This document shows positions 575-37,988 of a stretch of 64,000 nucleotides of DNA, piece after piece. Origin of the DNA: a virus. The translations under genes and the position numbers were made by a program. The DNA is taken from the IMG/VR virus record IMGVR_UViG_3300021493_000001, one strand, 5' to 3'. Each line of letters begins with the position of its first letter. The first letter of the stretch is position 1. The notes beneath the pieces were generated by a model that saw nothing but the letters and a program-made list of their open reading frames with translations, ran no database searches and was not told where the DNA came from.

Positions 575-914
575 TTTTTATTCTCCTTTTAGGTTTTTCT
601 AATAAATTCGGATTTTCATAAATATTACCAATTATTTCTATTTCATCTTGAGGGAAATACCCCAATGGTTTTTGAAAGAGAACATGCCAACAACCCAAAT
701 CTATGACAACTTCACCAATTCCTTGAGGAGTTTTTACAATATCCCATTCATAGATTTCCTTACCATTTTTATCTTTGTAATTTGTATAAAGCATAAGAAT
801 AACATTTTTATAAAAGCAACCTTCTATACTTATTTCTTGGTGCTTTAACCATATAGCATCAGGGTATAACATTCTTCTATTCTTCTCATCCCAAGCCCTA
901 ACTTTAATCTCCAT
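561..914 (-). CDS. YopX family protein
   Basis: MEIKVRAWD...YKDKNGKEIYEWDIV...IEIIGNIYENPNLL matches the YopX pattern. Confidence 0.9.
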   Translation of the reverse strand: MEIKVRAWDEKNRRMLYPDAIWLKHQEISIEGCFYKNVILMLYTNYKDKNGKEIYEWDIVKTPQGIGEVVIDLGCWHVLFQKPLGYFPQDEIEIIGNIYENPNLLEKPKRRIKNEKK

Positions 915-933
915 TTTTTGCCTCCTTTAAAAT

Positions 934-1449
934 TTATTCCTTCAAATATCTCCACCCGTTTAAAAAATTTAAAAAAGCCTGAAAGCCTTTATTTAGGTCA
1001 TCAATAAAAATAGTGTCAACAATAGCAGGCTTACCGTCTTTTCTAAGCCTTACCGCCGCCACTTTATCAGGCTTCAATTCTTCAGGCAGAGCATAATAAT
1101 AAGCTCCCAACTGCATTATCCACGCCTTATTAGCTACCTCAGAAGTCTTTAAATCCCACAACCACTTTTCACCTTTCCACTCAACTATCATATCAGGATG
1201 TCCTTTATAAATAAATTGCTCATGTTTCACTTCAAACTCAGCTTTGATTAGTTTTACAGGTAACAAACTTCTAAAGGATTGTATATATCCTTCCAGCTCG
1301 CCGTATTCAGGCACAAACAAATCTTGCAATTCAGCCACACAATACTTATGAATTAGTTTGCCTCGTTCACAGGCTAACTCCAGCGTGTTACTTGAGACAG
1401 GGAATTCTAGAAAGGGAGATATAACTTCTGTAACTCTGGGATAATACAT
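934..1449 (-). CDS. PD-(D/E)XK exonuclease (Cas4/RecB-like phage type)
   Basis: YPRVTEVI, RGKLIH, YKGHPD...WDLKTS, MQLGAY motifs. Confidence 0.85.
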   Translation of the reverse strand: MYYPRVTEVISPFLEFPVSSNTLELACERGKLIHKYCVAELQDLFVPEYGELEGYIQSFRSLLPVKLIKAEFEVKHEQFIYKGHPDMIVEWKGEKWLWDLKTSEVANKAWIMQLGAYYYALPEELKPDKVAAVRLRKDGKPAIVDTIFIDDLNKGFQAFLNFLNGWRYLKE

Positions 1450-1452
1450 GGT

Positions 1453-1680
1453 TCACTCCACAAAACTATGATTACAAATAATGCACCCACTCACAGGTTT
1501 ATTAGACATAATAAATGCTCCACAACTAGGACAGGTATCCCAGTTAAACAAATCCCACTTCCTCTGCACCTTTTCAAGATGCCCTTGCTCCCATAACTCC
1601 ACCACTTCAGAAGCTTCTTTTTCAGTAAAACCCCTGAAATGATAGTCCATCCGCCGTGCTACTATCCTTCTTTCATTCAT
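1453..1680 (-). CDS. Hypothetical protein with C-terminal CxxC...CxxC zinc finger
   Basis: Probable start MNERR at 1680, overlapping the upstream stop; CPSC and CIIC. Confidence 0.6.
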   Translation of the reverse strand: MNERRIVARRMDYHFRGFTEKEASEVVELWEQGHLEKVQRKWDLFNWDTCPSCGAFIMSNKPVSGCIICNHSFVE

Positions 1681-14946: not shown

Positions 14947-16509
14947 TTGAGTGATTTAGAGGTGATTGAACTTAATTTTAACAGTAGAGGTTTAGCACCG
15001 TCTTTAAGAAAAATTTTTCAAAAGGACCCATTAATTTTTCCTGAGAAAGTTCTGGGAGTTACTCTTTGGGATAAGCAGAAAGAAATTTTTAGAGCTATCT
15101 ATGAGAATGAACGAGTTGCAGTGCCTGCGTGTAATCATGCAGGCAAAACTCATACCGCTGCATGTCTAACCCTTGCATTTCTTTTTACATATTATCCTTC
15201 TAAAGTTATTACAACTTCAGCATTCAAAGAACAAGTTAAGGATGCATTATGGAGTGAAATCAGAACTAGAGTGAGATATTCAAGAATATCGTTAATGGAA
15301 GAAAAGCATGTAACAACTATGGGAATAAATTTAGGTCCTGATTGGTATGCTGTGGGATTAAGACCTCAAGACTCTTCTCAAGAGGCTTTTCAAGGAAGGC
15401 ATAGTCCGAATATATTATTAATTCTGGATGAATCAAGTGGGGTAGGTGAGAATATTTGGGAATCGGCTGAAGGATTAATGACCTCTGCCAATTGTCATTG
15501 GCTTGCACTAGGCAATCCATTTGACCCACTTTCACCATTTGGAGAAGCTTGTAATAGTGATGAATGGGTAACTATACATATTTCAGCTTATGATACTCCC
15601 AATGTTAAGGCAGGAAGAAATATTTATCCTCGGTTAATGCCTTGGGATTGGCCTGAGAAAAAGAAAAAGCAGTGGGGTGAAGATAGTGCAAGATACCAAA
15701 TTAGAGTTTTAGGCCAATTTCCTGAAAGAGAAGAAGAAAAGTTAATTCCATATTCACTTGCAAAACAAGTATTTGAAAGAAAATATAATCGTTGCACTGA
15801 TGAGACATTGGTAATTGGTCTTGACCCAGCAGGATTAGGAAAAGATAAAACAGTTTGGGTTTTAAGACAAGGCTCATCCATTGTTACAATAAAATGGGTT
15901 TTGAATGCAACTGATGAGGCAATTGGAAGAAGAACTTTAGAATTAGCAGAGACTTATAGAAGTGCTAACAAACCAACGATTATTAATATAGATGGTGGAT
16001 GGGGAAAAGGGATATATGAATATCTCAGAAAACATGGTAATCCTGAAAAAGTGAAGATTAACCTAGTTTTTTTATCTTCTAAACCAGAAAATGATGAAAA
16101 TGAATATTATAATTTGAGAACTCAAGTTGGTTTTAGATTGAAAGAGGCTATAGAAAGAGGATTATGTTTATCTCCATCAGCTAGAATAGTAAAGGATGCT
16201 TGGCTATCTGATATAACTGCTATAAAAGTCATTGAAGACCCTAGAACTGGGAAAAGAAAGTTAGAGAATAAAAGAAAGCTGAAGAAGCGGTTAAAGCGTT
16301 CTCCTGATTTTTTAGATGCTACATTACTTAGCTTTGTTTCAAGTTATAGAACTCCTCCTGCTATGGTAACTGTTTCAGAATTTCAATATAAAGAAGCAAA
16401 TAAAGAAGTGATTGATAATTCTATGTTTCCATCTATGATGCACCAATTCAAGATTAAAAGAAGAAATCCAATATTCTTTTTCAGAAATAATATCAGGAGG
16501 TTCTCATGA
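14947..16509 (+). CDS. terL: Terminase large subunit
   Basis: Walker A ACNHAGKT, Walker B LILDES, ALGNP coupling motif, nuclease GLDPAG and PDFLDA; TTG start. Confidence 0.95.
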   Translation: MSDLEVIELNFNSRGLAPSLRKIFQKDPLIFPEKVLGVTLWDKQKEIFRAIYENERVAVPACNHAGKTHTAACLTLAFLFTYYPSKVITTSAFKEQVKDALWSEIRTRVRYSRISLMEEKHVTTMGINLGPDWYAVGLRPQDSSQEAFQGRHSPNILLILDESSGVGENIWESAEGLMTSANCHWLALGNPFDPLSPFGEACNSDEWVTIHISAYDTPNVKAGRNIYPRLMPWDWPEKKKKQWGEDSARYQIRVLGQFPEREEEKLIPYSLAKQVFERKYNRCTDETLVIGLDPAGLGKDKTVWVLRQGSSIVTIKWVLNATDEAIGRRTLELAETYRSANKPTIINIDGGWGKGIYEYLRKHGNPEKVKINLVFLSSKPENDENEYYNLRTQVGFRLKEAIERGLCLSPSARIVKDAWLSDITAIKVIEDPRTGKRKLENKRKLKKRLKRSPDFLDATLLSFVSSYRTPPAMVTVSEFQYKEANKEVIDNSMFPSMMHQFKIKRRNPIFFFRNNIRRFS

Positions 16510-17046: not shown

Positions 17047-18357
17047 TTGCCATATTTTATCAAAAAACCAAGTCCCAAGCCTGCAAGATTTTTTGAAGCC
17101 ACCAAGCTTTCTTTGCCAGGCGGTGAAGAAACAAAAGAAGAAGATTGGGCTGGGTGGAGAAAAATCTCTGGTGTAGGATTGTTAAGAGAGTTACGCACCG
17201 ATGTATTTGTTAAGATGAGTCGTTTAGCCAAATGGCTTTATGACTCAAACCCCTTAGCCAAAAGGATAATTGAATACATCAAGAACTTTGTGGTAGGAGA
17301 AGGTATTTATTTTGAGACAACCGATAAACGAGTTCAAGAAGTATTAAATGCGTTCTGGTTTGATGATGTAAATAATTGGCCTCTTAAACAGCATGATAGA
17401 ATTTTAGAGTTATGTCTTTATGGTGAGTGTATTTGGCCTGTTACAGTAAACCCTGCTAATGGTCATGTAAGATTAGGATATATTGACCCTTTGGAAGTTA
17501 AAAAGGTTGTGCCTCATGAAGAAAATTGTTTGATTTTGGATAAGATTATTTTGTATGCTCCTCTCAATAAGAAAAACGGTAAAAAAAGAGAACTCAAGAT
17601 AATTCGCAGAGATGAAAATCCAAATAGCGATACTTATGGATACCTAACAGGTGAAACCTTTTTCTTTGCCATTAACAAAGTTTCAAATGCGACAAGAGGT
17701 GCAAGTGATTTGCTACCCTTGATAGATTGGATTGATTCTTATGACCAGTTTTTATTTACAAGACTTGAAAGGCAAATGAATATTAATAATTTCTGCTGGG
17801 ATGTAACTTTAGAGGGTGCAGATGAACATGAAATAAAACAATTCCTTGATAATTTACCACCTCCTTCGCCTGGGACAATCAGAGCACATAACGAGAAAGT
17901 TAAATGGGATGTAGTTGCTCCTAAGCTTGAAGCAAGAGATGCAAATCAAGAAAGCCGTTTGATAAGAAATCATATTCTAAGTGGTGCAGGTTTCCCACCT
18001 TATTATTTTGCAGATACAGAAGGAGTAAGGGCGGTTGCTTATGAGCAGGCTTTTCCTACCGAAAAGATGCTTATTACCAGACAGAAATATTTTAAAGCAA
18101 TGATTGAATATGTATTCAATTTTGTAATAGACCAAGCAATTCTTCATAAAAGATTACCAAGGAATGTTAATCGTAAGTTTGAAATAATTTTTCCTGAAAT
18201 ATCATTAAGAGATATAGAACGGTTGAGTAGAGCATTTAAGAATATCACCTTATCAATAGAGCATTTGAAACAAAATAATTTAATTTCAGATGAAGAAGCT
18301 AAAAAGATTATAAGGAATTTATTGAGCCAGATGGGTGTCAATATTGACAATGAGTGA
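17047..18357 (+). CDS. Portal protein
   Basis: 436 aa after terL; SNPLAKRII...VVGEG, LCLYGE, RGASDL, GAGFPPYYF patterns. Confidence 0.85.
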   Translation: MPYFIKKPSPKPARFFEATKLSLPGGEETKEEDWAGWRKISGVGLLRELRTDVFVKMSRLAKWLYDSNPLAKRIIEYIKNFVVGEGIYFETTDKRVQEVLNAFWFDDVNNWPLKQHDRILELCLYGECIWPVTVNPANGHVRLGYIDPLEVKKVVPHEENCLILDKIILYAPLNKKNGKKRELKIIRRDENPNSDTYGYLTGETFFFAINKVSNATRGASDLLPLIDWIDSYDQFLFTRLERQMNINNFCWDVTLEGADEHEIKQFLDNLPPPSPGTIRAHNEKVKWDVVAPKLEARDANQESRLIRNHILSGAGFPPYYFADTEGVRAVAYEQAFPTEKMLITRQKYFKAMIEYVFNFVIDQAILHKRLPRNVNRKFEIIFPEISLRDIERLSRAFKNITLSIEHLKQNNLISDEEAKKIIRNLLSQMGVNIDNE

Positions 18358-19195
18358 TATGAAAAAGAAATGTAATTATATATTGAGTAAGACTGATAAA
18401 GCAAATATTGTAAAGGAATATTTAAAAGGCTTGAGTTCAACCAAGTTGAGTTTGAAATATAATGTAACTCCATCAGCAATTTTGAGCATTCTCAAAAATA
18501 GAAAGATTAAGAGACGAAATAGGTCGGATGCTGCTCGAAAATTAAGTCTTGATATTAATGCATTTCAGAATTCAAATAATGAAGAAGTTGCTTATTGGGC
18601 TGGATTTCTTTTAGCAGATGGTTCAGTAATTAAGATTGATAATAGTTATCAAATTTCCTTAGTCTTACATCAACGAGATAGAAACCATATTGTAAAATTC
18701 AAAAGATTTTTAAAGTCAGAGCATAAGATTTCGAAAAATCGAGTCTTTTCTGTTTTAAATGTAAGGTCGAGAAAATTAGGATTAGACTTGATTAACTTGG
18801 GAGTTATTCCAAATAAGACTTATAAAGATAGCAAAATTCATAAACAGTTATTAAATAATCGGCATTTTTGGAGAGGAGTGGTAGATGGGGATGGCAGTCT
18901 TTGTTTTTGTAATAAATATCCTGTTTTAAATTTAATGGGAAGAGAGAATTTGCTTCGAGAATTTTTGATGTTTATTCAATATTTCTTTCCAATGATTAAT
19001 ACTAAAATTATACCGATTAAGAATGAAGTTTGCAGAATCTTTTTCCGAGCTAATACAGCAAAAAGGGTTACCTATCTTCTATATCATGAAGCAAATGTAT
19101 TTCTCGATAGAAAAATGGATATGGCATTGAAAATCTTAAATTGGGTAAGTAAGAAAAATCAAAATATGTTACTGAGCCAAATGGCGATGAGATAG
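18335..19195 (+). mobile_element. Free-standing LAGLIDADG homing endonuclease with N-terminal HTH
   Basis: AYWAGFLLADGS and HFWRGVVDGDGS; true start may be 18350. Confidence 0.9.
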
Positions 19196-19216: not shown

Positions 19217-22200
19217 GTGCGTATAACTGAACTTCATTTAGAGCAATTTAAAAAAGAAGGGGTTGATTACGATATTAAACATGCCAAGACCAGATGGAGA
19301 GAATTGCTGGCGGACATTAGGTATCTTTTCAATAATGCTTTACCAAGGATTTGGAAAGGCGAGAAATGGGGTGATTGGCAGGAAGAAGATTGTTTAAGAT
19401 ATGGAGGTAAGATTATAGATGCCCTTCGTTCTGTTTATTTTCCTTTGATACCACCCTCTAAAGATGACCCAAGATATAATACAAGCTACTGGAAGGCTTA
19501 TCGTAAGGCTGAAAAGAAAGGTTATATCAAATCTAAACCACCTAAACTAGAAGAAGTATCTGAATGGGATAAGAAACGCAAAGAGATAATCAAAACCTCT
19601 TTAGAAGAAGCAGAAAGAAAAATAGATGGTCTTTATTTAACTTATCCACATGGAGAGTTATTTTGGACTAAAGAAAAAACTTTGTTAGTGAAGACTAGAA
19701 AGTTTGATTTATCCAAGCCTCACTATCTAATTGATGATGGCTTTTGCTATGGGATTATCTCGTTCAAAGAACCTAAAAGAATTACTAAAAAGCAGTTCTT
19801 TACAGAGGATTTAAAGAAAAAGCATCGCATCCTAGATACAGAAGCTTGGCAGTGGTGGAGAATGTCAAGAGACAATGCAGTTGAGCCTGAACTTTGGGCT
19901 TATGAGGTTAAAAAATTTGAACCGTTTGAAATACCTGAAAGAGTGAAAATACCAAAGGGAACACAGGTTATAGTTGATGCAGATAACATTGAATTTGTAG
20001 GAAAGGATGAAGAACAACCTGCAAGGATTGATTGGCCTATAATGGCTACCAAGGAAGCAAAGACTGATTACATTAAATTCTATGGCACTAAAGGATATAT
20101 AGAAGAAGAAAACAATGAACATAAATATCATACCTGTATTTTGTTATCCTTAAATGACACAAATATCTTATTGGATTATGGTGAGAGGCATCCTGAAGAA
20201 ATAAAGGAAAGAATAGATGTGATATTGAACTCGCATCGGCACATTGACCACATCTGTCCTGAAATATCAAGCTTTGCTTGTCCTTTATATATATCAAAAG
20301 AAACTTTGAATAGAGTGGATTTTTCTTTACCCGAAGATATAAGAATTTATGAAGCTAGAAAAGCATTTAGTATTGGTAATATAAAAATTATTACTTATCC
20401 AGTTTATCACTCCATCCGTGCTCCTATGCACATTTTCAAGATTGAGACAGATAACCTTGCAATTGGAGTAATGACTGATTTTTTAGCCTTTGAAGAAGTA
20501 GAAGATGAAGAGTTTTTCTATCCAAATCTAGACATAGTCATAATAGACGGTAGTAGCATTACGAAAGATTTAAGAAGATGGAAGGAAGACCATAACTTAA
20601 TATTTGGTCATAAAAGCGTAATTCACCAAATTGAAAGAATTAGAGATAGATGTGAAAAAAATCCAATAATAATCCTCACTCATATTGGGCGTGAAGGCAT
20701 AGAGTGGGGAGACTTACAAATATTACAATATTTACATGAAAGATTTGCTGGAATGCACATATATATTGCCAAAGATGGCAGTGTATTTGACTTAAAAACA
20801 AGGCGATTTACTGAGGCATTCAAAGGCGAGCAAATATGCAAAGATATTGTTGCAAATCTTCCTTCTTTTACATGGATACCTGAATTTACAAGCATTACAG
20901 GCTCTACCTTATTTACAAAAGACCATGCACCAAGAGACTTGGATGTAATGTGCAAAGCAGAGGAGATAAATGGAAAGTGGTATATTCCTATAGATACTTC
21001 TCTTTTGCTTAAATTGCAAAGAGCCTATCAATATGCAACAAAGAAAGTCTTAGGCAAGGCAATCAAGCCTGAGTTCCCACCTCCAGCATTGATTGGAGCT
21101 AATTGGAGTTCTATACCTGCTTATGATTTAAAGCTTGTGCCTAGAAAAAATCCAGAAGTAAGAAGGACAGGAGAAGAGGAGTTTGAAGAAAAGGTTTATG
21201 GAGTAGATTTTAAGGAAAAGTTAAGGTTACGCACCAAATCCAAAGATATTGAAAAAATGGCTCAGCAATCCTTAGAAGAGGATAAAGTCAAACCACTTCG
21301 TTTCTTTATGCCTCTTAAACCAATACGAGTTCAAGGAAAGCATGGAGAAAGGAATACACCAGAAAGGCTTGTAGAGTTATTTGAGCCACAGCATTACCCA
21401 GTTTATAACTCGGTAAAGAGAGATGGATTCAGGGTGCAAATTCATGCAGACGGGGATAAAGTTGTAATTTATTCAGAAGATGGCAATGATATAACAAAGC
21501 AATTACCTACAATTGTTGATGCAGTTAAAAGACTTAAAGCAAAATCAGTTGTTTTAGATGCTGAAGTTGAGTTATGGGAGAATGGATATCATCATCCACG
21601 AGAAGCAGCCATTGCTAAAATTCATTCTAAAGCAATAGATGATAAGGATTTGATTGCTAATTTATTTGATTGTATATATCTAAATGGCGAAGATTTGCAT
21701 AAAGAGCCATTTGAAAAGAGATGGAAAGCATCAAATTCTCTTGGCATCAAATATTCAAAAGAAACTAATTTAAACCCAGAAGAAAAACTTAATATTATTC
21801 CCCATATCTTATGCAAAACTCCAAAAGAATTGCTTAGAGAAACAGAACGCATGAGAAAGGTTAAATCAAGTGAAGGCTGTGTAGCTATTGCCCATAATGC
21901 AACCTATCCATTAGATGGCAAACCAGATGACAATTCATTTTGTAAGTTTCACAATAATGTAGTTATAAGGGGAATAGTAATTGAACCTGTGCAGACTAAA
22001 GTAAGCACGGTATATAATTTATCCTTTGGCTGTTTAGCAGGTAAGCATGAAATATTAAAGAAAGACCAGACAGAAGTAGGTCCTTATGAAAAAGTTTTAA
22101 CCATAGGAAGCACTTTTGCTGCACCTTATGTAAAACGAGGTAGTGTAATTGAGGTTGAATGTGAAACAATTAACCATATCATCCATGAAGACATTGAAGG

Positions 22201-24247
22201 CAATCCAGTAGAAATTACAGCTTGGGCACCTAGATTTATGCGGGTAGTGCCAGGGGCTAAACCAGATAGCATAGATGACATTCTTAGAAAAGCTAGAAAA
22301 GAAAATCATGTTTTGCAAGAGAAAATAATCAAATCAGACGGCACAGTAATATATAAGGAAGCAAGAAAAGAGCTTTATTGCTTTCTTACAGAAGAACCCA
22401 CATTAACAAGCAAGATTAGTGATAGATTTGGTGCAGCTAAGTATGCTATATTCTTTGAACCTGCTACTTATCATTTTGAAGCAATAGATTTGTCTAATTT
22501 TGTAACAGGAATTGAAATTACAGATTTAATAAAAGAACGCAGAGCTACAGAAGTTGTTACAAACCAGATAGGAAGATTTAGCAGAGAGGCGTTAGACAAG
22601 GCTGGAATTAAGATTGTTTTTGCCCAAGGAAAGGTTGAGGATTATTTAAATAAAAAACTAGGTGAAAGCCCGCTTTTAAAAGAAGCTATATTAAGAGAGC
22701 AAGACCCGTATATGCAATATTTTGACGAAGATAAAGAGCATAAATTTTGTGCCCAACATCATTACAGGTGTGCTTTGAAAGAAGTTTTAAAAGAAATAGG
22801 AAGAGAAGATTTATGGCCTAGAGAAGAACCGAGTCCAGAGGAATGGGCTAAATTATGGCCTAAGTGGTGGCCTGAAGTAAGAAAGGTATTGGAAGATTAT
22901 TATGATACCCATCCCAATTTTGAACATTCACCTAGTGTCCATTGTGATTTACGCATGGAAACAGATACTAAAGGCGTGTTAATTGGTTTTACTCTTAATG
23001 ACCAAATTAAAGACCGTCCACAATTTTTTCCTTTGAGATTGAGAAAATCTGAAGGTAAATATAGTGCAGAAGAATATGATGATGACCCTGAGAATTGGAA
23101 GATAAATTATAATACTGGTGAGTTTGCTAAAAGAGTTAAAAAGGGAGGAGCTAAAGCACCTGTTTCTTTGATAAGTGAAAGAAAGGCACAAGAACCAAGT
23201 AGTTGGTTAACTTACGAGGGCTTTCAATCTCCGAGAAATGTGGCTGCTACTAGATATGGCTATGCTTTATTGCATTTGATAAGGAAATTGGGCATTGTTG
23301 AGACGGGCATGCAGCTCAATTATTTCCATGAATATTTCTTACATTTCCCCAGAGATGGTAATAAGCCTCCATTTTATTGGAGATTGATGTTTAGGTATTT
23401 AAAGCGTCCTTTTAAGGAAGCAATTGAAAAGCAAGATTATGAAACATTATCAGAGTGTGTATATCTTGAAGATGGTGAGGATTTAGAAGAAGGAATTTAT
23501 TTAGAAGCAGAAAGAATTATACCTGTTTCAGAAGAGGGGTGGGGGCGAAATCAAGCAGGCTGGTTATGTATATATGGAGTTGATAAAACTCCTTACATTA
23601 TTTCAGACCGTGCAGTTAAGTTAAAACGCATGTGCCCTTATCCTTACAGTGCTTTACCTAGATATATCAAAAAACAAATACCGCCTGAGTTTCATTACTG
23701 GAAAGAAAAAGACATGAAAAAACGCATTGAAATAAGGGATGCTTTGGTCAAAGCTATCAAGGAAAAGAAAGTTATTTTGAAAGAAAGCATTGCAAGAGAT
23801 TATATCCTCCAATTGCATTACAGCGAGCCAGCCGAATTAATTAAAAGGAAGTCCCCAGCTCACAAACATTGGGATTTGAGAATTGATGGAGACCTAAAAA
23901 AGAAAACAGGCCATATATTTCATGCAGTTTTAGAATTAAACCCACTTGAAGTTGACTCTACCTCTGCATATTTAAAGAAGTGCAAAGGAGATGAAGGTGG
24001 AGTAAATTGGATGGAAGTTGGCAAAGATAAGACAGTTAAGTTTACTAAAGGATATGGAACATTTGAGAAAAACGAACCTGGGTATGTTAAAGCATTGGAC
24101 TGGGGTAGAGTATTAGTTTTAGAAGACTCACCCTTATTTAAAAAGTTTCAATTTAAAGGCAAACAATTAAAAGGAATTTGGATAATGCATAGAAGTAGTC
24201 CTGAAACTGATATTTGGACTTTTGAGAGGTCAAAGGACATTGGTTAA
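19217..24247 (+). CDS. 1676-aa multi-enzyme: ASCH-like + MBL hydrolase + nucleotidyltransferase + ATP-dependent DNA ligase + NifX-like + two LigD-phosphoesterase-like domains
   Basis: GLYLTYPH...YGII (aa ~136-255); SHRHIDH (339-345); TGS...DLD (561-576); KRDG (734) with DAE, FDC, EG and PRF; DRFG...QIG...GI (1069-1131); QHH...HCDLR and QLH...HWDLR. Confidence 0.85.
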   Translation: MRITELHLEQFKKEGVDYDIKHAKTRWRELLADIRYLFNNALPRIWKGEKWGDWQEEDCLRYGGKIIDALRSVYFPLIPPSKDDPRYNTSYWKAYRKAEKKGYIKSKPPKLEEVSEWDKKRKEIIKTSLEEAERKIDGLYLTYPHGELFWTKEKTLLVKTRKFDLSKPHYLIDDGFCYGIISFKEPKRITKKQFFTEDLKKKHRILDTEAWQWWRMSRDNAVEPELWAYEVKKFEPFEIPERVKIPKGTQVIVDADNIEFVGKDEEQPARIDWPIMATKEAKTDYIKFYGTKGYIEEENNEHKYHTCILLSLNDTNILLDYGERHPEEIKERIDVILNSHRHIDHICPEISSFACPLYISKETLNRVDFSLPEDIRIYEARKAFSIGNIKIITYPVYHSIRAPMHIFKIETDNLAIGVMTDFLAFEEVEDEEFFYPNLDIVIIDGSSITKDLRRWKEDHNLIFGHKSVIHQIERIRDRCEKNPIIILTHIGREGIEWGDLQILQYLHERFAGMHIYIAKDGSVFDLKTRRFTEAFKGEQICKDIVANLPSFTWIPEFTSITGSTLFTKDHAPRDLDVMCKAEEINGKWYIPIDTSLLLKLQRAYQYATKKVLGKAIKPEFPPPALIGANWSSIPAYDLKLVPRKNPEVRRTGEEEFEEKVYGVDFKEKLRLRTKSKDIEKMAQQSLEEDKVKPLRFFMPLKPIRVQGKHGERNTPERLVELFEPQHYPVYNSVKRDGFRVQIHADGDKVVIYSEDGNDITKQLPTIVDAVKRLKAKSVVLDAEVELWENGYHHPREAAIAKIHSKAIDDKDLIANLFDCIYLNGEDLHKEPFEKRWKASNSLGIKYSKETNLNPEEKLNIIPHILCKTPKELLRETERMRKVKSSEGCVAIAHNATYPLDGKPDDNSFCKFHNNVVIRGIVIEPVQTKVSTVYNLSFGCLAGKHEILKKDQTEVGPYEKVLTIGSTFAAPYVKRGSVIEVECETINHIIHEDIEGNPVEITAWAPRFMRVVPGAKPDSIDDILRKARKENHVLQEKIIKSDGTVIYKEARKELYCFLTEEPTLTSKISDRFGAAKYAIFFEPATYHFEAIDLSNFVTGIEITDLIKERRATEVVTNQIGRFSREALDKAGIKIVFAQGKVEDYLNKKLGESPLLKEAILREQDPYMQYFDEDKEHKFCAQHHYRCALKEVLKEIGREDLWPREEPSPEEWAKLWPKWWPEVRKVLEDYYDTHPNFEHSPSVHCDLRMETDTKGVLIGFTLNDQIKDRPQFFPLRLRKSEGKYSAEEYDDDPENWKINYNTGEFAKRVKKGGAKAPVSLISERKAQEPSSWLTYEGFQSPRNVAATRYGYALLHLIRKLGIVETGMQLNYFHEYFLHFPRDGNKPPFYWRLMFRYLKRPFKEAIEKQDYETLSECVYLEDGEDLEEGIYLEAERIIPVSEEGWGRNQAGWLCIYGVDKTPYIISDRAVKLKRMCPYPYSALPRYIKKQIPPEFHYWKEKDMKKRIEIRDALVKAIKEKKVILKESIARDYILQLHYSEPAELIKRKSPAHKHWDLRIDGDLKKKTGHIFHAVLELNPLEVDSTSAYLKKCKGDEGGVNWMEVGKDKTVKFTKGYGTFEKNEPGYVKALDWGRVLVLEDSPLFKKFQFKGKQLKGIWIMHRSSPETDIWTFERSKDIG

Positions 24248-24449
24248 GTTTAATTTTAAAAGATTTAAATGTCCAAAGGATAAGCACTTCTTATTTGCTG
24301 AAGACATTAAGGATGGTGTGATAGAGGTATATTGTAAATACTGTAAAACTACATACCGCATGGCTTTTAAAGAAGGTAAACTTATAAGTTTGAGTGAAAT
24401 TCAGCAAAAGAAAGTTGAGTGTCTTGACAAAATTAGAAATAAGGTTTAA
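24222..24449 (+). CDS. Com-like zinc-ribbon regulator
   Basis: FKCPKDKHFLF...IEVYCKYCKT resembles the Mu Com pattern; first CxxC is CxxD. Confidence 0.65.
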   Translation: MRGQRTLVKFNFKRFKCPKDKHFLFAEDIKDGVIEVYCKYCKTTYRMAFKEGKLISLSEIQQKKVECLDKIRNKV

Positions 24450-24452
24450 CAT
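24424..24452 (+). promoter_or_regulatory. Sigma70 promoter for the capsid gene
   Basis: TTGACA-17 bp-TAACAT. Confidence 0.7.
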
Positions 24453-24469
24453 AAAAGAAAACTAGAAAA

Positions 24470-24548
24470 CTGCCTCTCAATACGAGAGCAGAGAATCACT
24501 TGGGATTAAAGGCTCAGTAAGCAGGAGAGAGGCAAGCTTGCTGGGCTT
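24470..24548 (+). promoter_or_regulatory. Structured 5' leader of the capsid gene
   Basis: 11-13-bp stem 24510-24522/24536-24548; 24471-24478 complementary to loop 24527-24534 and partly to 24484-24491. Confidence 0.55.
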
Positions 24549-26882
24549 ATGGAAAATTTCAAACCAAGTGATTTTTTTGAAACCTTCCAAGGTAAGTTTC
24601 TTCCTTTACTTGAATCGGCCAGAGGTGATGAATGGGATGTTGTTTTAATTGAGGCAGGCCGAAGTAAGGGAGGAAGTCAAGGTCAAATCTTATATCCTGA
24701 AGAAGTCCTGAAAAGAGCAGTTCCTCTTTTTGAGAATGCCAAGTGTTATGCCTTTGAATTTAGTGGTCAAATTTATGACCATCTTCCAGAGAATATCAAA
24801 CAAGCAGTGCCTCAAGGTTTTGCGAAAAATCTTGTAGGTTATTTTACTTCTCCTAAATTAAAGAAACTTCCCAACGGGAAGAAAGGTATAGTTGCAAAAT
24901 TTCATGTCATAGCCGATTGGCTTAAATCTGCCCTTAAAAATGCTGGGAACAAACTACCCGAACTGCTGGGCTTTTCCATAGATGCAGAGGGAATTGTTGA
25001 TAGAAGTCAAGGCATGGCTTTGTCAATTGATAGAGTGGATAGTGTTGATTTAGTTACATATCCAGCAGCAGGAGGCAGATTTTTAAGAATGGTGGCATCT
25101 AGGCTTGCTGCCAGTATTGGAAAGCAAGAAGAGGGGCAAAAAGAAGGATTAAATAGAAAAGGAGGTAACAGCATGAACCCTATGTTACTGGCAATCAAAG
25201 GATGGAAAAGTGGTCTCCAAGAGGGACAAGCGGTAGAAGCTACTGATGATGTAGTTTCTGCAATCTTTGGCAATGTATTGGATGAGGAAATAATAAAAGA
25301 GTCTCGTGACGAATTAAAGGAGATTATTACTCAATGTGTTGGCTTTTTAAGTGAAGGAAAAGAGGAGCTAGCTGAAGCCCTTATTACAGGGATTGTTGAG
25401 GCTAAGAAGAAGAAAAAGAAAAAAGACGAGTATCCTACTCCTGCGGAAAAATATCCAGCACCTCAAAAGGCTTCTACTCAAAACGAGCCTAATGGTGATA
25501 TGGAAGAGGCTAAAAAGAAAAAGAAAGATGAATATCCTGCTTATCCTGAAATTCAGAAACAATCTCAAGACTTAGAAGCTCTCAAAAATGAGATTACCAG
25601 ATTGAAATTAGAAAAATACTTAGAAGAAGCTCTTAAAGAGTCTGGTTTGACCAGTGTATCTAAAGAGCAAATCAGAAACATGCAGTTTAGTTCTACTGAA
25701 GACATAGACAAGGCTATCGGAAATATGAAAGATTTAGAAGCCAAGTTTATGCAGGAAGCTGGAGTTTCAAGCAAGGTTGAAGCGGGCAATACAGAAGGTG
25801 AAAAAGTATTGCAAATGATTGAGGATGTATTAGAGGGTAAATCTCATAGCATCAAAGAGGCTTATATCAGGTTTACTGGTGATAGAAAGGTAACTGGTTT
25901 AATTAAGGAATGTGCAGGAAGGGGTAAAGCAAGGATTACTGAAAGCTTGACAACCTCTGATTGGGCAGAAGCTTTAGGCGATACTTTAAGACGGAAACTT
26001 ATAAAAGAATATAAGGTATCTGGATTAGATGACTGGAAAAAGATAGTATCTGATATTGTGCCTTTACCTGATTTTAGAGACCAGCACTGGATTAGATTAG
26101 GTGGGTATGGTGAGCTTCCTTCTGTATCTCAAGGTTCAACCTACACAGAACTTACCTCGCCAACTGATGAGGAAGTGAAGTTATCCGTAGGTAAATATGG
26201 TGGCCTTGAATCGGTCACACTGGAAATGATAAAGAATGATGACATTCTTGCAGTTAGACAAATCCCTAAACGGTTAGCAAGAGCTGCTGCACAGGCTCTC
26301 TACAATGCCATATTTGATGATATTTTAAAGGATAATGCAACCATTTATGATAATGTTGCTTTATTCCATGCTAGCCATAGTAATTTAGGTTCTACAGCTT
26401 TATCACCAACATCCTTTATGGCAACCAGAAAAGCGATGGGACAGCAGACTGCTTATGGAAATAGTGAGGAGTATTTAAATCTTTATCCTAAATACTTGAT
26501 TGTGCCACTTGACCTTGAAGATACAGCATTTAAGCTCTGTCATTCACCTGTGTTTGTAAACACTGCAACATATTATTCTGGTGGTGGTGCATCAGAAGCT
26601 GCAACTACTCCTAATATTGTGCCTCAGAAATTTAAAACTGATTATATCGTAGTGCCTAGATGGACAGATGCTAATGATTGGATTGCTGTGGCTGACCCGA
26701 ATATGTGTCCTACAATTGTTGTTGGTTTCTTGGATGGCAATGAAGAGCCTGAAATATTTATTCAAGACCAGCCTTCAGTTGGTAGCTTATTCTATGCTGA
26801 TAAAATTGTTTATAAAATCAGGCACATTTGGGGTGTAGCTGTATTTGATTATAGGCCATTTTATAAACATGCTGTAGGTTAA
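24549..26882 (+). CDS. Prohead protease-scaffold-major capsid protein fusion (Mu gpT-like capsid)
   Basis: FSID...DSVDLVTYPAAGGRF protease; charged scaffold; TLEMIKNDD, PKYLIVP, GFLDGNEEPEI...YKIRH capsid motifs. Confidence 0.9.
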   Translation: MENFKPSDFFETFQGKFLPLLESARGDEWDVVLIEAGRSKGGSQGQILYPEEVLKRAVPLFENAKCYAFEFSGQIYDHLPENIKQAVPQGFAKNLVGYFTSPKLKKLPNGKKGIVAKFHVIADWLKSALKNAGNKLPELLGFSIDAEGIVDRSQGMALSIDRVDSVDLVTYPAAGGRFLRMVASRLAASIGKQEEGQKEGLNRKGGNSMNPMLLAIKGWKSGLQEGQAVEATDDVVSAIFGNVLDEEIIKESRDELKEIITQCVGFLSEGKEELAEALITGIVEAKKKKKKKDEYPTPAEKYPAPQKASTQNEPNGDMEEAKKKKKDEYPAYPEIQKQSQDLEALKNEITRLKLEKYLEEALKESGLTSVSKEQIRNMQFSSTEDIDKAIGNMKDLEAKFMQEAGVSSKVEAGNTEGEKVLQMIEDVLEGKSHSIKEAYIRFTGDRKVTGLIKECAGRGKARITESLTTSDWAEALGDTLRRKLIKEYKVSGLDDWKKIVSDIVPLPDFRDQHWIRLGGYGELPSVSQGSTYTELTSPTDEEVKLSVGKYGGLESVTLEMIKNDDILAVRQIPKRLARAAAQALYNAIFDDILKDNATIYDNVALFHASHSNLGSTALSPTSFMATRKAMGQQTAYGNSEEYLNLYPKYLIVPLDLEDTAFKLCHSPVFVNTATYYSGGGASEAATTPNIVPQKFKTDYIVVPRWTDANDWIAVADPNMCPTIVVGFLDGNEEPEIFIQDQPSVGSLFYADKIVYKIRHIWGVAVFDYRPFYKHAVG

Positions 26883-32843: not shown

Positions 32844-35800
32844 TTGGCAAAGGGCTACGATGTAAGTATCACCATAACTACTCAATGGAGGGAGGGTGGC
32901 AAACCACCTTCCCCTCAAAAGATTGAACGAATTAAAAAGCCTATTCGGGATTTAAATACTGAAATTCGCAAACAACAAGGATTATTATCTAGATTTTATA
33001 ATAACTGGAAAAGCACTTTTGCTGTTTTTGCTGCTGGATATGCCTCAGTTGTATTATTCTTGGGAGCTATGAGAGCTTTAAGCAATACAATTACAGGCGG
33101 AATTAAAAAGATTGCTGAGTTTGAAGCTTCAGTAGCTTCCTTAACCGCTAGATTAATATCATTAATCAGAACCAAACCAGGAGAGAGTTTGTCTGCTGGA
33201 TGGGAACGAATATCTAATTATGTAAAGGATGTATATACCTGGGCTGTCAAATTAGATGCTCAATTCATTGGAACGGCTGAAGAATTAATGGAAGCATTCA
33301 AGGCTTTAGCTGACCAAGGAATAATTTTAAATGTTCAATCTGAAGAACATCGTAAAGCGTGGCTTGCTATTGCTGCTGCTGCTAAAGCAGCCAATCCTCA
33401 TATTCAAAGACAAGGACAAATATATCAGGAAATCAGAGGTTTTATTCAGCATATCACAAGACAGGGAAATGAACTTGCAAGACAAGCAAAAGCAATGATT
33501 CCGAATTATGAAAAACAAGTTGAACTTCTCTCAAGTGCAGATGAGTGGGCTAAATTCTTAAATACTCATTTCTTAGGCTATTTGGTCTTATCTCAAAAAA
33601 TTGGTCAAACTTGGGATGCCATTGTTGCTACATTTGGAAGTTATTTTAGTTTACTACAAAGGTTTGGATTGAGGCCATTATTTGAAACCTTAAAAAATAT
33701 CATTCTGGATATGGCAAATTATTTAAGAGAACACCTCGTGCCTTTAAGTGCTAATTTTGCCATAATTTGGCGTGAAATTTCTCCTGCTATTCGTTTAGTT
33801 GCTGATATATTTGGGATAATATTCAAGACCATTTCAGCTATATCTCCTGTAATTGCTGCGATTTCCCATGTCATTGGCACACTAGCATCCTTATTTAGAG
33901 TGCCACTTAAATTGTTTTCTCTAATGCTAGATAAGCTTATAGATTATGAAGGACAATTAATTAGAATAGAAAACCAACAGAAACGGACATTCACAATTAC
34001 AGAAACTGAAAGAAAACTACTGGAACTCAGAAAAAAAGAAGAAAAAATTGATTTAGCTAAACCATTGCAATTAGCTAAAGAAGCGGAGTTTGAGTTATTA
34101 GCAGCAGCTAAAAGTGCGACTTATGCAAGACTTGAATTAAAACGTCGTGAAATTAAAGCTGAGATGGAGAAAACAAAGACAAAAATTAAAATGTTACTAG
34201 AAGAAAGGCAATTAGAACAGAAACTAGCACAAGAAAGAAAAGAAGAAGCAGAAAAAGAACGAAAAAAATGGGAGAGTGATTATAACAAATGGGTTAAGCT
34301 CAATTCAGAACTTAGCCAATTGCAACAGAGATTATACAGGATGCCTCTTGGAGGTGGAGCTGAAGCTGGGGAAATAATGTCCCGAATTAATCAAATTAAA
34401 CCAAAAATATTAGAGCTATCAGAAAGCCTTAATAAGTATAACAAAGCTCAGGAAGATTATACTAAAAATTCTGAAAAAGCTAAACAAGCTGAGCAAAAGA
34501 TTGTGGAGCTTAGAGGAAAGTTAACAATATTAAATAAATATCTCGCACTTGTTACAAAACAATTAACTGAAGAGGACGAACGTTTAAGAAAAGAAAAAGA
34601 AGAAGGAACTAAAAAAGAAATAAGTAATATTCAAAAAATCCGTGATGCTTACAATGCTTTGTTAATGGATTATGAAAGATATGAAAGCCAAAGAAAAGAA
34701 ATTTCTCAAGAAATGGCTACTGAGAGATTAAGAATTGAGGCTAAGCTTACAGGTAGTCTGGAAGACCAATATAAATATCGTATGAAACAAGTAGAAGAAT
34801 GGGAAACTCAAAAATTGAACCGAGTTTTATCTATCAGAAATGCAATGCTGAAAAAGATTGAAGCGATGGCAAGAAGAATTAGAGAAGAAGCAGCGAAAGA
34901 AGGCAGAACATCACTTGACCAATTGACACAAGAAGAATTAAAAATGCTTGTTAACTTGGTTAAAAAACGAGTTCAAGTAGAAAAAGATGCTGAAGATGCA
35001 ATAAATGCAATAAGAAGAGCAGGAGCAGATAAAGGAAAAGAAATCTTTAGAGATATATATACTTATTCTATAGATTTAGCACAAACTTTTCAAAATACAA
35101 TTTCAGATGCTTTTGAAGGCATAGTATTAGGAACTCGGAAACTTTCAGATGTTTTTAAGGCTATGCGAGATGCTTTAGTGCGAGAGTTTGCAACGGGTTT
35201 AGCTGGAATGATTACAAAGAAAATTGAATGGGAAAAAACCTTAATTGGAAATTTAGAAATAAACTTACCTAAAGCATTTGGAAACCCTTTAGAAAAGATA
35301 AAATCCATTTGGTCTTCTGCTATGGATTGGCTTAAAGGCTCAACAGGTAAATTGCTGGGAGCACTGGGCACTGCTACATATGGCATTGCTGGAATGGTGG
35401 GAAGTGAACCTTGGCGTGCTATTGGTGGTGCTGGTGCAACAGCAGCCTTGTTTACAGGCCATCCTGTAATTGCTATGGCAACAATCACAGCAGCAGAAAT
35501 TGGAAGAGCAATCTTTAAAGGTAGAGTTGAATGGGTAGGTGTTGGTGCTGGTGCAGCGGGGATACCAATAACTCAGATTGGATTGAGAAGAGGAATTCCT
35601 ATGAGACCCATTTTAGGAGCGGGTATGTTAGCTGGTGGAGCATTGGGTGCAATTGGAGGTCAAACTTTGGGAGCTGTGGGTGCAGCTTTAGGTGGAACTG
35701 GTGGAACACTCGGTGCGATGCTAGGTGGGGCAGCATTTGGTGCTGGTATAGGTCTTGCTGTAGCTGGCATAGTTTCTTTATTTACCTCAATGTTTAGCCG

Positions 35801-37988
35801 TAAATGGCCAACTATCCGTGGAACAGCAGAGATATCATTAAAAGGTTTAAGTGATAGTCTAGATTATGTTGAAGGGTATATGAGGGAGATTGAAAAATAT
35901 CTGGATGAACATACTGAAATCTATGCAATGTATAAGACTAAGTTTGCTAGAATCACAATAATGGAAAAGAGAGATGTCAAAGGAAGCATGGATGAGATTA
36001 CACAGGCATTTGGTAGTTTTGTAGATGATTTGGTTGATTTTTACCAAAGTATTCTTCCTTCAACAATGAGATTTGAAGAATTGCCTAGCATTAAAATGAC
36101 TTTTGGTGCTGGTAAGAAAAACATGGAAAATCTAGCTAAGCAGTTTGTTAATGAACTGGTATCACAAACATACAATGCTTGGGCAGTGCCAATTGTAGAA
36201 GAATATAATAGATTGCTTGGTATGGATTTATTTGAAAAATTTGGTTTACCTAAAATTGGCGAACTAGTTGGTGGGATTGGACATCGCTGGAATGAGCAAA
36301 TGAAAAAGTTATATGAGAGACTTAGCAGAGAAGTATTACCATCATTAGGAGTTGCTTTCACTTATGCCAAAACAATCATGAACCTAGTGGATAAATATGG
36401 AGAGGGATTGGTTGGTATATATAAGGATGAGATTGCTAATGAACTCGTAAATATGTTAGAGAAATATAAAGGTGAAGTGCAGGGGCTAAAGGAAGAAGAA
36501 GTAAAAAAGAAAGCAGAGGAGTTTGGACAAACTGTCAATGAATACCTGTCAACAGTGGTTTCTATCATTGGTGAGATAGAAGATATTATTGCTCAATATA
36601 CTTTGAGTTCATTTGAGCAGAATTTACGAGAGATAAGAAGCTGGTATCAGGAAAAACTAGCTGAGCTTACTTCTTTGGGCTTGTCCACAGAGAGGTTGCT
36701 GCTTGCTGTCACATTGAAGATTAAAAATCTTATAGAACAATCAGTAATTGCACCTCTTAAATCTTTATATGTCTCCATTCAGCAATTTAGATTGCCTGAG
36801 CCTGCTTTTGTTTCATGGCAGGTTGCACAATTAGAAACTAAATGGGGGCCAATCTGGGGTGATATTGATGCCTTGGCAGGTAGATGGGATGAGTTGATTG
36901 CAGATGCCTCAACATATTTTAGCTTATTACAGAGACAGTTTGAATTTGAGGCACAAGCCATTAGGGCAAGGGCAGAAGAAAGAAAAGCACAAATCAGGAC
37001 TGAAGCGGAAGCACAAAGAGCAGTGATGCAGGAGAGGCTGAATGGAATACAAGAAGAAACCTCAGCACTCCGAGAACAAAAGAGAGAGTTAGAAAGCATT
37101 AAAGAACAATGGAAAGGTGTGATAGATAGTATAAAGCAAAGGCTACAAGAATTACAGTTTGGCCCTGAAGCACCAGTGCAGTCTTGGGCTGCCTATCAGG
37201 TCAAATGGGCTGAACTAGTGGAAGCAGCAAAGACTAGTCCTGAAGCTGCACAAGAGCTAATTGAATTTTCAAAGAGGTATTTAGAAATAGCTAAGATATA
37301 TGCACCAAGTCAATACCTAGACATTTGGCAACAAGTAGTAAGCACCTTACAGGATGTTGAAAATAATGCGGTTTCTGAAATAGATTTATTACAGACACAG
37401 ATTGATGCAATAGAAAGGCAGACAGAGGCACTAGAAAATAGGGCTAGAGATATTGAGCGTTCAATGAACAATATTGGCAGTGATTTATCAGCACGGTTAG
37501 CTGCAATAGATGCCCAAGCAGAGCAACAAATTACATTGCTAAGACAAGAGTATGCCAACAGGATGATGGCAATCCATGACCGTCTAAGAGAAGTGGGTGA
37601 GTATCTTGCAAAGCAGATAGAAGAGCAAATGCCAGAAGATATTAGACTGCTTACAGCAACAGCAAACTGGCTAGAGAAAATATACAATTATTTAACTGGC
37701 GTTCCATCGGCACAAACAGGTGGAGTAACTACAAGAGAGGGTCTATATCATCTCCATGCAGGGGAAACAATATTACCACGTAATACAAATATTAAGGTTG
37801 AGATTGACAGTGATAAACTAGGTAAGTCAATTGCATCATCATTACTAAGTGCTGGTGTAACTAGTGGGTCTGGTTCTCAATCTATCCATCTGCATATAGA
37901 CGGTAGAGAAATAGCAACAGTTACAGCCGAGCAAATGAGGCGAGGTCACTCTGAACTGATTAAGCAAGTAAGGAGGGTGTCGCACTAG
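32844..37988 (+). CDS. Tape measure protein
   Basis: 1714 aa, long coiled coils, Gly/Ala hydrophobic segment, C-terminal LHAGETILP and LHIDGREI. Confidence 0.9.
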   Translation: MAKGYDVSITITTQWREGGKPPSPQKIERIKKPIRDLNTEIRKQQGLLSRFYNNWKSTFAVFAAGYASVVLFLGAMRALSNTITGGIKKIAEFEASVASLTARLISLIRTKPGESLSAGWERISNYVKDVYTWAVKLDAQFIGTAEELMEAFKALADQGIILNVQSEEHRKAWLAIAAAAKAANPHIQRQGQIYQEIRGFIQHITRQGNELARQAKAMIPNYEKQVELLSSADEWAKFLNTHFLGYLVLSQKIGQTWDAIVATFGSYFSLLQRFGLRPLFETLKNIILDMANYLREHLVPLSANFAIIWREISPAIRLVADIFGIIFKTISAISPVIAAISHVIGTLASLFRVPLKLFSLMLDKLIDYEGQLIRIENQQKRTFTITETERKLLELRKKEEKIDLAKPLQLAKEAEFELLAAAKSATYARLELKRREIKAEMEKTKTKIKMLLEERQLEQKLAQERKEEAEKERKKWESDYNKWVKLNSELSQLQQRLYRMPLGGGAEAGEIMSRINQIKPKILELSESLNKYNKAQEDYTKNSEKAKQAEQKIVELRGKLTILNKYLALVTKQLTEEDERLRKEKEEGTKKEISNIQKIRDAYNALLMDYERYESQRKEISQEMATERLRIEAKLTGSLEDQYKYRMKQVEEWETQKLNRVLSIRNAMLKKIEAMARRIREEAAKEGRTSLDQLTQEELKMLVNLVKKRVQVEKDAEDAINAIRRAGADKGKEIFRDIYTYSIDLAQTFQNTISDAFEGIVLGTRKLSDVFKAMRDALVREFATGLAGMITKKIEWEKTLIGNLEINLPKAFGNPLEKIKSIWSSAMDWLKGSTGKLLGALGTATYGIAGMVGSEPWRAIGGAGATAALFTGHPVIAMATITAAEIGRAIFKGRVEWVGVGAGAAGIPITQIGLRRGIPMRPILGAGMLAGGALGAIGGQTLGAVGAALGGTGGTLGAMLGGAAFGAGIGLAVAGIVSLFTSMFSRKWPTIRGTAEISLKGLSDSLDYVEGYMREIEKYLDEHTEIYAMYKTKFARITIMEKRDVKGSMDEITQAFGSFVDDLVDFYQSILPSTMRFEELPSIKMTFGAGKKNMENLAKQFVNELVSQTYNAWAVPIVEEYNRLLGMDLFEKFGLPKIGELVGGIGHRWNEQMKKLYERLSREVLPSLGVAFTYAKTIMNLVDKYGEGLVGIYKDEIANELVNMLEKYKGEVQGLKEEEVKKKAEEFGQTVNEYLSTVVSIIGEIEDIIAQYTLSSFEQNLREIRSWYQEKLAELTSLGLSTERLLLAVTLKIKNLIEQSVIAPLKSLYVSIQQFRLPEPAFVSWQVAQLETKWGPIWGDIDALAGRWDELIADASTYFSLLQRQFEFEAQAIRARAEERKAQIRTEAEAQRAVMQERLNGIQEETSALREQKRELESIKEQWKGVIDSIKQRLQELQFGPEAPVQSWAAYQVKWAELVEAAKTSPEAAQELIEFSKRYLEIAKIYAPSQYLDIWQQVVSTLQDVENNAVSEIDLLQTQIDAIERQTEALENRARDIERSMNNIGSDLSARLAAIDAQAEQQITLLRQEYANRMMAIHDRLREVGEYLAKQIEEQMPEDIRLLTATANWLEKIYNYLTGVPSAQTGGVTTREGLYHLHAGETILPRNTNIKVEIDSDKLGKSIASSLLSAGVTSGSGSQSIHLHIDGREIATVTAEQMRRGHSELIKQVRRVSH

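Follow-up and report, generated by a model that had tools for sequence, protein, structure and literature searches.

A putative glutamate-directed maturation code in a phage head module and its possible extension to a giant multi-enzyme protein

The 64,000-nucleotide stretch of viral DNA analysed here (the window; IMG/VR virus record IMGVR_UViG_3300021493_000001) contains the head module of an uncultured tailed phage, in which a giant multi-enzyme protein is encoded among the genes for the portal and for a protease-scaffold-capsid fusion (Table 1). The giant is read as a chain of two N-terminal modules (N1 and N2), a metallo-beta-lactamase (MBL) fold, a nucleotidyltransferase-like region, an ATP-dependent DNA ligase, a Nitro_FeMo-Co-like domain and two regions with an H-x-D-L-R signature. 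A short motif, in which a hydrophobic residue, any residue and glutamate are followed by alanine or serine, lies mostly between these domains, and both the capsid fusion and the N-terminus of the portal carry it as well. This raises the question of whether one prohead protease reads a single cleavage code in all three proteins and, as the original prediction proposed from the letters alone, releases separate enzymes from the giant inside the prohead. The explanation that we favour combines a head module, a shared code and a giant that would be cut as cargo; with packaging, cutting and enzyme activities all conjectural, we give it as a whole slightly less than even weight.

Support for the code is clearest in the capsid fusion and the portal. 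Among five capsid fusions at 46-99% identity, E284, E397-A398 and E437-A438-Y439 are invariant inside the least conserved region of the protein. Across 64 diverse fused capsid proteins, the element S-[FIL]-[KR]-E-[AC]-Y around E437 keeps its glutamate in 49, and the element R-[LIM]-x-E-[SA]-L around E465, just before the capsid N-arm, has glutamate in 59 and serine or alanine in all 64; at both sites a small residue occupies P1' in all or nearly all of the proteins. Cyanophage Mae-JY22, a Microcystis phage with the same capsid fusion, retains both sites, and the unfused capsid protein of Arthrobacter phage Molivia, whose residue 1 aligns near fusion residue 428, has LKE-S at the 465 position. 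Portals show a similar picture, with F15, E17 and A/S18 invariant in all six compared (45-98% identity; F-x-E-[AS], 6/6) within an N-terminus that otherwise varies and is rich in indels. A maturation-cleavage code would leave such patterns, and the proposal that head proteins share a hydrophobic-x-Glu/Ala-or-Ser code is therefore upheld for the capsid fusion and portal, where comparative evidence supports it well as the putative cut code of the maturation protease. The mature capsid product likely starts near S466. The JBD30 paper holds no data on capsid cleavage sites.

Motif frequency in the capsid fusion tells the same story. Counting the strict motif hydrophobic-x-E-[AS] against expectations from composition or shuffling, we found 12 sites in the fusion where 3.1 were expected; residues 209-475 hold 10, compared with 1.5 under local shuffling, and alanine follows 11 of the 38 glutamates there. 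The capsid domain itself (residues 476-777) has no strict site. Coiled-coil heptad periodicity was considered as the sole cause of the motif in the scaffold region and rejected, given that the spacings are irregular and the glutamates themselves are conserved. Re-translation placed every tetrapeptide listed in the original prediction at its assigned residue and added LGE/S at 1150 in the giant and LIE/A at 35, LAE/A at 276 and WAE/A at 474 in the fusion. A 1,714-residue protein of the tail module (32844-37988) has 3 strict sites against 8.7 expected, a count of at most 3 arising in about 1% of shuffles. Separately, a strong Shine-Dalgarno sequence, AAAGGAGGT, lies 6 nucleotides ahead of codon 209 of the fusion, an in-frame ATG just past the protease domain (25160-25175), so a nested scaffold-capsid product without the protease is possible.

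The enzyme that would read this code is the fusion's N-terminal domain. By tblastn it matches the capsid maturation protease of Arthrobacter phage Molivia (6e-8) as well as Streptomyces phage proteases, and an ESM-Atlas feature search placed it nearest to clusters of Peptidase_S77 (T4 gp21) and S80 (phiKZ type), both at 0.95. Residues D77-H78, G141-x-S143 and D167, in the motifs DH, GFSID and SVDLVT, are invariant in five lineages, making H78, S143 and D167 candidate catalytic residues in a comparison with what we take to be the T4 gp21 triad. Pfam gave no match to residues 1-208 in three lineages even at E<=10, and hhalign against T4 gp21 was not significant (E=0.066 over 32 columns); its weak match takes in a Y-P-x-x-[IV]-L-x-[KR]-A-V stretch whose end lies immediately before H78. 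Alignment with XkdF-type proteases was likewise not significant (hhalign E=0.21), and a search for shorter stand-alone relatives returned one uninformative match. No significant match to an S77 or S80 family profile was thus obtained and S77 membership is not established; the enzyme probably works like T4 gp21, and we infer an assemblin-fold serine protease that is probably closest to it.

In the giant protein, the evidence lies in where the motif stands. Eight linkers, together 164 residues or 9.8% of the chain, were defined from the envelope ends of 675 profile matches, from Pfam, PHROG and PDB limits, from large inter-lineage indels and from the usable parts of AlphaFold2 models. They hold 8 of the 9 strict sites and 9 of the 14 E-[AS] pairs, compared with 1 of 26 control motifs of the form hydrophobic-x-[KRDQNT]-[AS] and 15% of glutamates before other residues. 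Glutamate is followed by alanine or serine in 9 of 32 cases in linkers versus 5 of 134 in domains (Fisher p=1.3e-4), and shuffling within the linkers yields 0.9 strict sites where 8 are observed. The folded domains contain a single strict site against 4.3 expected (p=0.06).

The linkers had been drawn with the motif positions already known, a weakness of this comparison, so placement was retested with motif-blind rules. Zones within 6 residues of an indel of at least 5 residues, covering 32% of the length, still capture 8 of the 9 sites (p=7e-4); other settings gave p=0.003-0.012 with flat controls, and a rank test on flank conservation gave p=0.012-0.018. The bias recurs in relatives named here by locus, since linkers take 9 of 12 strict sites in L005 and 9 of 10 in L004, again with flat controls, and more weakly 3 of 9 in L006 and 4 of 13 in L012 (p=0.02-0.04 for these two), as well as 2 of 6 in P0012. 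The earlier claim that sites cluster at domain borders thus holds as non-random placement (motif-blind p=7e-4 to 0.02) and loses force in the L006 clade; as a feature of the giant the placement bias appears to have real support, of moderate strength.

Borders differ in how well they keep a site. Near the N1-N2 junction (site 131) the motif occurs in four of five lineages, and all five have E-[AS] 5-9 residues before the conserved MBL start (site 280), at shifted positions. Strict motifs follow the ligase in four of five lineages (site 1048), and four of five also carry the motif after the FeMo-Co-like domain (sites 1150/1156), at most 10 residues from a conserved DPY. Site 533 is kept in L005, shifted in L004 and absent in P0012 and the L006 clade, and site 1523 is kept in L005, reads LKEA in L004 and is absent in the L006 clade. 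Both 1401 and 1430 persist in L005 and L004; the L006 clade has a deletion of residues 1399-1448, and the P0012 protein stops at about 1404. The L006 clade instead has new copies, IKE-A, VQE-S, IYE-S and LTE-S, at four borders in other alignment columns.

Use of all proposed sites would give computed fragments of 15.9, 17.9, 29.8, 58.7, 12.3, 29.5, 3.4, 11.1 and 17.7 kDa. The 58.7-kDa fragment comprises nucleotidyltransferase plus ligase, as the original prediction was right that the window has no site between these two. All lineages share an invariant D-[FL]-K-E element at residues 664-667 (21206-21217), after the nucleotidyltransferase-like region and ahead of the ligase; the residue after it is lysine in the window, alanine in L004 and P0012, serine in L012 and glycine in L006. 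The element could be a conserved cut site with a relaxed P1' position or a folded N-terminal element of the ligase. At the E1156 linker, L004 (L004:2374-7608, about residues 1150-1240) has a 75-residue insertion that resembles a second Nitro_FeMo-Co-like copy, and motif copies LRE-S, YPE-A and LQE-S flank both copies in that protein.

A number of results weigh against cutting of the giant. Enrichment in head proteins, which the original prediction expected, was found in the capsid fusion and not here: the count of E-[AS] is 14, with 16.0 expected (p=0.75), and that of the strict motif, a degenerate four-residue pattern, is 9 against 5.3 (p=0.07-0.09), while the control hydrophobic-x-K-[AS] is more over-represented (11 versus 5.6). 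Because this count is at background, the giant shows the lack of enrichment that the prediction itself had named as telling against it. None of the strict sites is found in every one of the five lineages; most are confined to the clade of the window, L005 and L004, about as overall identity would predict. Site 131 reads LEET in relatives at 89-94% identity, and in 15 of 20 members of the wider family the N1-N2 junction is short and lacks the motif. The L006 clade lacks sites 533, 1401, 1430 and 1523 although its own capsid fusion keeps the code. Mapping onto AlphaFold2 models placed E131 and E280 in low-confidence segments (126-134 and 263-284) and E1156 in a helix at 1152-1162. Inside the folded ligase domain, four lineages conserve an IVE-A at 768, which shows that a copy of the motif can serve structure alone. 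Even in the capsid protein, E465 is alanine in the 99%-identical L002, where the site therefore cannot be indispensable.

Many of these results suit the main competing explanation, in our judgement somewhat unlikely, that the giant is head cargo that stays whole or loses only a terminal piece. Hydrophobic-x-E-A suits amphipathic helices, and Glu-rich, partly helical linkers could produce the motif without any selection for cleavage; linkers are indeed 19.5% glutamate versus 8.9% in domains, and the helix at E1156, the background count, the conserved IVE-A and a turnover of sites at about the rate expected from identity all fit. End-healing and sealing enzymes, LigD among them, also often act as one polypeptide. 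Composition accounts less well for the rest: shuffling that preserves the linkers' own residues leaves the excess of strict sites intact, neither glutamate before residues other than alanine or serine nor aspartate, lysine, arginine, glutamine, asparagine or threonine before alanine or serine shows any linker bias, and distant lineages re-place the motif (VQE-S, IKE-A, LTE-S, IYE-S) at the same borders in other columns.

Whether the protease would meet the giant at all depends on its being a head protein, and here gene order and relatives of N1 and N2 are informative. The terminase, portal and capsid fusion flank the giant gene, placing it among the virion genes of a portal-terminase phage. 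The giant occupies the head-protein slot immediately behind the portal in three lineages of 38-95% identity. Portal and giant genes stay adjacent in L002, L004, L005, L006, L011, L012 and L014, from 95% down to 34% identity, and overlap, often by stop and start codons, in L002, L004 and L005. In the window a homing endonuclease gene sits between them; it is missing from the 95%-identical L002, where the two overlap, and so has the look of a mobile gene that recently entered a pair coupled in translation. The endonuclease is not part of the cleavage system. Searching 1.84 billion representatives with a profile of giant residues 1-284 brought up 675 relatives, in which N1 and N2 behave as separable modules, occurring alone and at many positions in large proteins. 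Among the top 150 relatives, 17-18 have the XkdF-type prohead protease domain Peptidase_S78_2 at the C-terminus, usually directly after N1; a C-terminal protease of this kind is seen in P0021, P0022 and P0036. Other partner domains include ligase, MBL, D12 methyltransferase, DprA, NADAR and LigD_N, the last below threshold in P0025. The equivalent slot in Mae-JY22 holds a MuF-type head-morphogenesis protein. Within the window, N1/N2 (19217-20068) has no Pfam or PHROG match. From these comparisons, N1/N2 may be a prohead-targeting or protease-docking device, and the giant very probably belongs with the head-associated polyvalent proteins.

An alternative that we consider improbable is that the giant is a cytoplasmic DNA-repair or replication enzyme, outside the virion, which the prohead protease never meets. 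MBL, ligase and nucleotidyltransferase are typical of replication and repair genes, and we found neither a MuF domain (Phage_Mu_F; residues 1-288 have no Pfam or PHROG match), a gp7 domain nor a known capsid-targeting sequence in the giant. In the L006 clade (L006, L011, L012 and L014; 34-38% identity), the capsid fusion lies about 12 kb downstream, with opposite-strand replication genes (primase-polymerase, exonuclease) between. Yet the giant gene still adjoins the portal in that clade, and the conserved and often overlapping portal-giant pair, the N1/N2 relatives fused to prohead proteases and the minor head protein in the Mae-JY22 slot all speak against a cytoplasmic enzyme. The head module of L006/L018, which are the same 40-kb contig, is split in an unusual way; a 742-residue protein upstream of the portal in this clade was considered as the capsid fusion and rejected.

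The least probable alternative is that chance and a selective eye for a very short motif produced what is seen in the giant, with only the capsid and portal sites real. In its favour are the modest strict count (p about 0.08), the terminase, which has 5 sites versus 1.7 expected (p=0.03) at a density above the giant's in a protein that no prohead protease should meet, and the linker limits, chosen after the motif was seen; against it, motif-blind zones keep the signal (p=7e-4 to 0.012; controls flat), and L004 and, less strongly, the L006 clade show the bias too.

The domain content of the giant bears on what its pieces could do. The chain holds at least two domains of different activity, with MBL, ligase and Nitro_FeMo-Co-like domains in addition to N1/N2, and the predicted activities all appear to be directed at nucleic acids, which makes them less disparate than those of the type examples of polyvalent proteins. 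A LigD-type 3'-phosphoesterase is hinted at by a weak PDB match (3p4h, E=0.003) near residues 1591-1630; the two H-x-D-L-R regions are not significantly alike (hhalign E=0.22), and reading them as two phosphoesterase domains therefore remains a guess. Pfam gave no match when N1-N2, the nucleotidyltransferase region and both C-terminal regions were submitted in isolation, and the Pfam scan found no primase-polymerase domain. AlphaFold2 models of residues 1-1160 and 1040-1676, built from only 7-8 homologues, had a mean predicted local distance difference test (pLDDT) of 51 and 47 and were usable only for N1, N2, the first two linkers and the FeMo-Co-like domain (1051-1150). Foldseek matches of the large model to viral structures were almost all ligases. 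Two relatives (L005:9977-16087 and L008:2230-7647) have a 360-residue insertion after window residue 630, inside a conserved G-A-N-W stretch of the nucleotidyltransferase-like region, and P0011, P0014 and P0025 carry Hint and LAGLIDADG domains. Inteins thus appear to target the giant-protein family, which speaks for a functional importance of the sites they interrupt.

Table 1. Features of the head module and candidate cut sites, in window nucleotides unless given as residues of the giant protein; a slash marks the putative cut.
Feature	Position	Strand	Basis or remark
Large terminase	14947-16509		
Portal protein, 436 residues	17047-18357	+	phrog_10963, 1.1e-39
Portal site FFE/A	17089-17100	+	N-terminus
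LAGLIDADG-type homing endonuclease	18335-19195	+	phrog_4645, 1.3e-35; LAGLIDADG_3
Giant multi-enzyme protein, 1676 residues, 196 kDa	19217-24247	+	Pfam, PHROGs
N1	residues 2-~128 (~130)		limits from 675 profile matches; helical
N2	residues ~135/138-261		limits from 675 profile matches; beta-rich
MBL fold	residues 285-530		Pfam/PHROG; PHROG match ends at 530
Pol-beta-like nucleotidyltransferase motif	residues ~545-650, motif at about 560-580		our own reading of the sequence
ATP-dependent DNA ligase	residues ~676-1035		Pfam; PDB profile matches down to 3e-18 (archaeal ligases)
Nitro_FeMo-Co-like domain	residues 1051-1148		Pfam 1064-1146; confident AlphaFold2 domain starts at 1051
Two H-x-D-L-R signature regions	residues 1163-1398, 1527-1676		our own reading of the sequence
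LEE/A, E131	19601-19612	+	N1-N2 junction; AlphaFold2 low-confidence segment 126-134
TKE/A, E280	20048-20059	+	N2-MBL linker; AlphaFold2 low-confidence segment 263-284
FTE/A, E533	20807-20818	+	MBL-nucleotidyltransferase border
YKE/A, E1048	22352-22363	+	ligase-FeMo-Co-like border
LGE/S, E1150, and LKE/A, E1156	22658-22687	+	linker after FeMo-Co-like domain (Pfam end 1146)
FKE/A, E1401, and YLE/A, E1430	23411-23509	+	variable 50-residue insert
LKE/S, E1523	23777-23788	+	before C-terminal domain; border least independently defined
Protease-scaffold-capsid fusion, 777 residues	24549-26882	+	
Prohead (capsid maturation) protease domain, fusion residues 1-208	24549-25172	+	phrog_15531, 2e-10
Scaffold/delta-like region, fusion residues 209-465	25173-25943	+	dense in hydrophobic-x-E-[AS]
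IVE/A	25392-25403	+	scaffold region
MEE/A	25500-25511	+	scaffold region
LEE/A	25620-25631	+	scaffold region
DLE/A	25731-25742	+	scaffold region
IKE/A	25851-25862	+	scaffold region
ITE/S	25935-25946	+	scaffold region
HK97-fold major capsid domain	25944-26882	+	Phage_capsid_4, 3.7e-47, fusion residues 453-773

In the mechanism that we favour, the protease most likely cuts after glutamate in the context of a large hydrophobic residue, any residue, Glu and then Ala or Ser. Judging from conservation, it would shred the scaffold-like middle of the fusion, free the capsid domain near E437 and/or E465 and trim about 17 residues off the portal. The giant would be head-associated "polyvalent" cargo, made in step with the portal, and the protease would probably cut it at some linkers inside the prohead, because the same code lies preferentially in inter-domain linkers; the pieces would measure roughly 12-59 kDa, and nucleotidyltransferase and ligase would stay joined. 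We regard such dicing at linkers as plausible, a little short of an even chance. The pieces could then exit together with the DNA and, in the new host, heal or seal DNA ends. A fuller scenario is doubtful: a phage of temperate rather than jumbo size would load an end-healing and sealing polyprotein through a portal-linked N1-N2, its protease would dice this into about eight enzymes, and these would be injected and repair or circularise the genome before gene expression.

Several known systems resemble parts of this arrangement. T4 gp21 and the phiKZ and SPN3US proteases cut after glutamate in a three-residue context, as the original prediction had noted; in T4, LIE conforms to the gp21 cleavage logo, and in SPN3US the context is A-x-E with serine favoured at P1' (PMC9026906, PMC10052503). 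Such proteases shred scaffold or propeptide regions by cutting them repeatedly; in giant phages they also trim the portal, and they process enzymes that are packaged and injected, Alt for example (PMC9026906, PMC10052503). Their substrates are IPI-III, Alt, gp22 and gp23, and in SPN3US gp53/54 and the portal gp81. A difference that counts against cutting of the giant is that known gp21-type cuts remove N- or C-terminal propeptides (13 of 14 SPN3US sites are N-terminal) and do not split polyprotein enzymes (PMC9026906, PMC10052503). The window protease also differs from the gp21 and phiKZ enzymes in being fused to a scaffold and an HK97-fold Phage_capsid_4 capsid, with no Pfam S77/S80 match.

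The closest parallel for the giant itself is the polyvalent proteins of phages and conjugative elements described by Iyer, Burroughs, Anand, de Souza and Aravind (Iyer et al. 2017, PMC5512222), which, in the portions of that paper that we draw on, are predicted to be packaged and injected, some with C-terminal assemblin-like peptidases predicted to process proteins during virion assembly. Like these, the giant combines several enzymatic domains in one chain, and its gene lies with the virion genes of a portal-terminase phage. Unlike them, the protease lies outside the giant and heads the next gene, fused to scaffold and capsid, and in place of a mix of unrelated weapons the MBL, nucleotidyltransferase, ligase and possible 3'-phosphoesterase would form a coherent end-healing and sealing kit. 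Within the same portions of the paper, ligase appears only as RNA ligase and no defined linker code is described (PMC5512222).

Two further comparisons concern position and enzyme content. Like MuF/SPP1 gp7 minor head proteins with C-terminal effectors, the giant is encoded directly after the portal and is predicted to be head-internal and enzyme-carrying, but it has no detectable MuF domain and begins instead with the uncharacterised N1 and N2. Like bacterial LigD, it joins an ATP-dependent ligase with end-processing domains and gives a weak phosphoesterase-like signal. It does not unite ligase, 3'-phosphoesterase and primase-polymerase as a LigD-type enzyme does, having a pol-beta-type nucleotidyltransferase and an MBL in place of the archaeo-eukaryotic primase-polymerase, in the context of a phage head module.

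Some of these results can be used in annotation now, namely the R-[LIM]-x-E/[SA]-L maturation site, which the fused Phage_capsid_4 family conserves, and the widespread N1/N2 modules that accompany prohead proteases. If the favoured explanation is true, the giant would offer a concrete example, open to test, of the processing that was predicted in 2017 for phage polyvalent proteins. A capsid-maturation protease would then double as a polyprotein processor with a readable linker code in an ordinary HK97-type head, and DNA end-repair enzymes, besides anti-restriction or transcription factors, could travel inside capsids.

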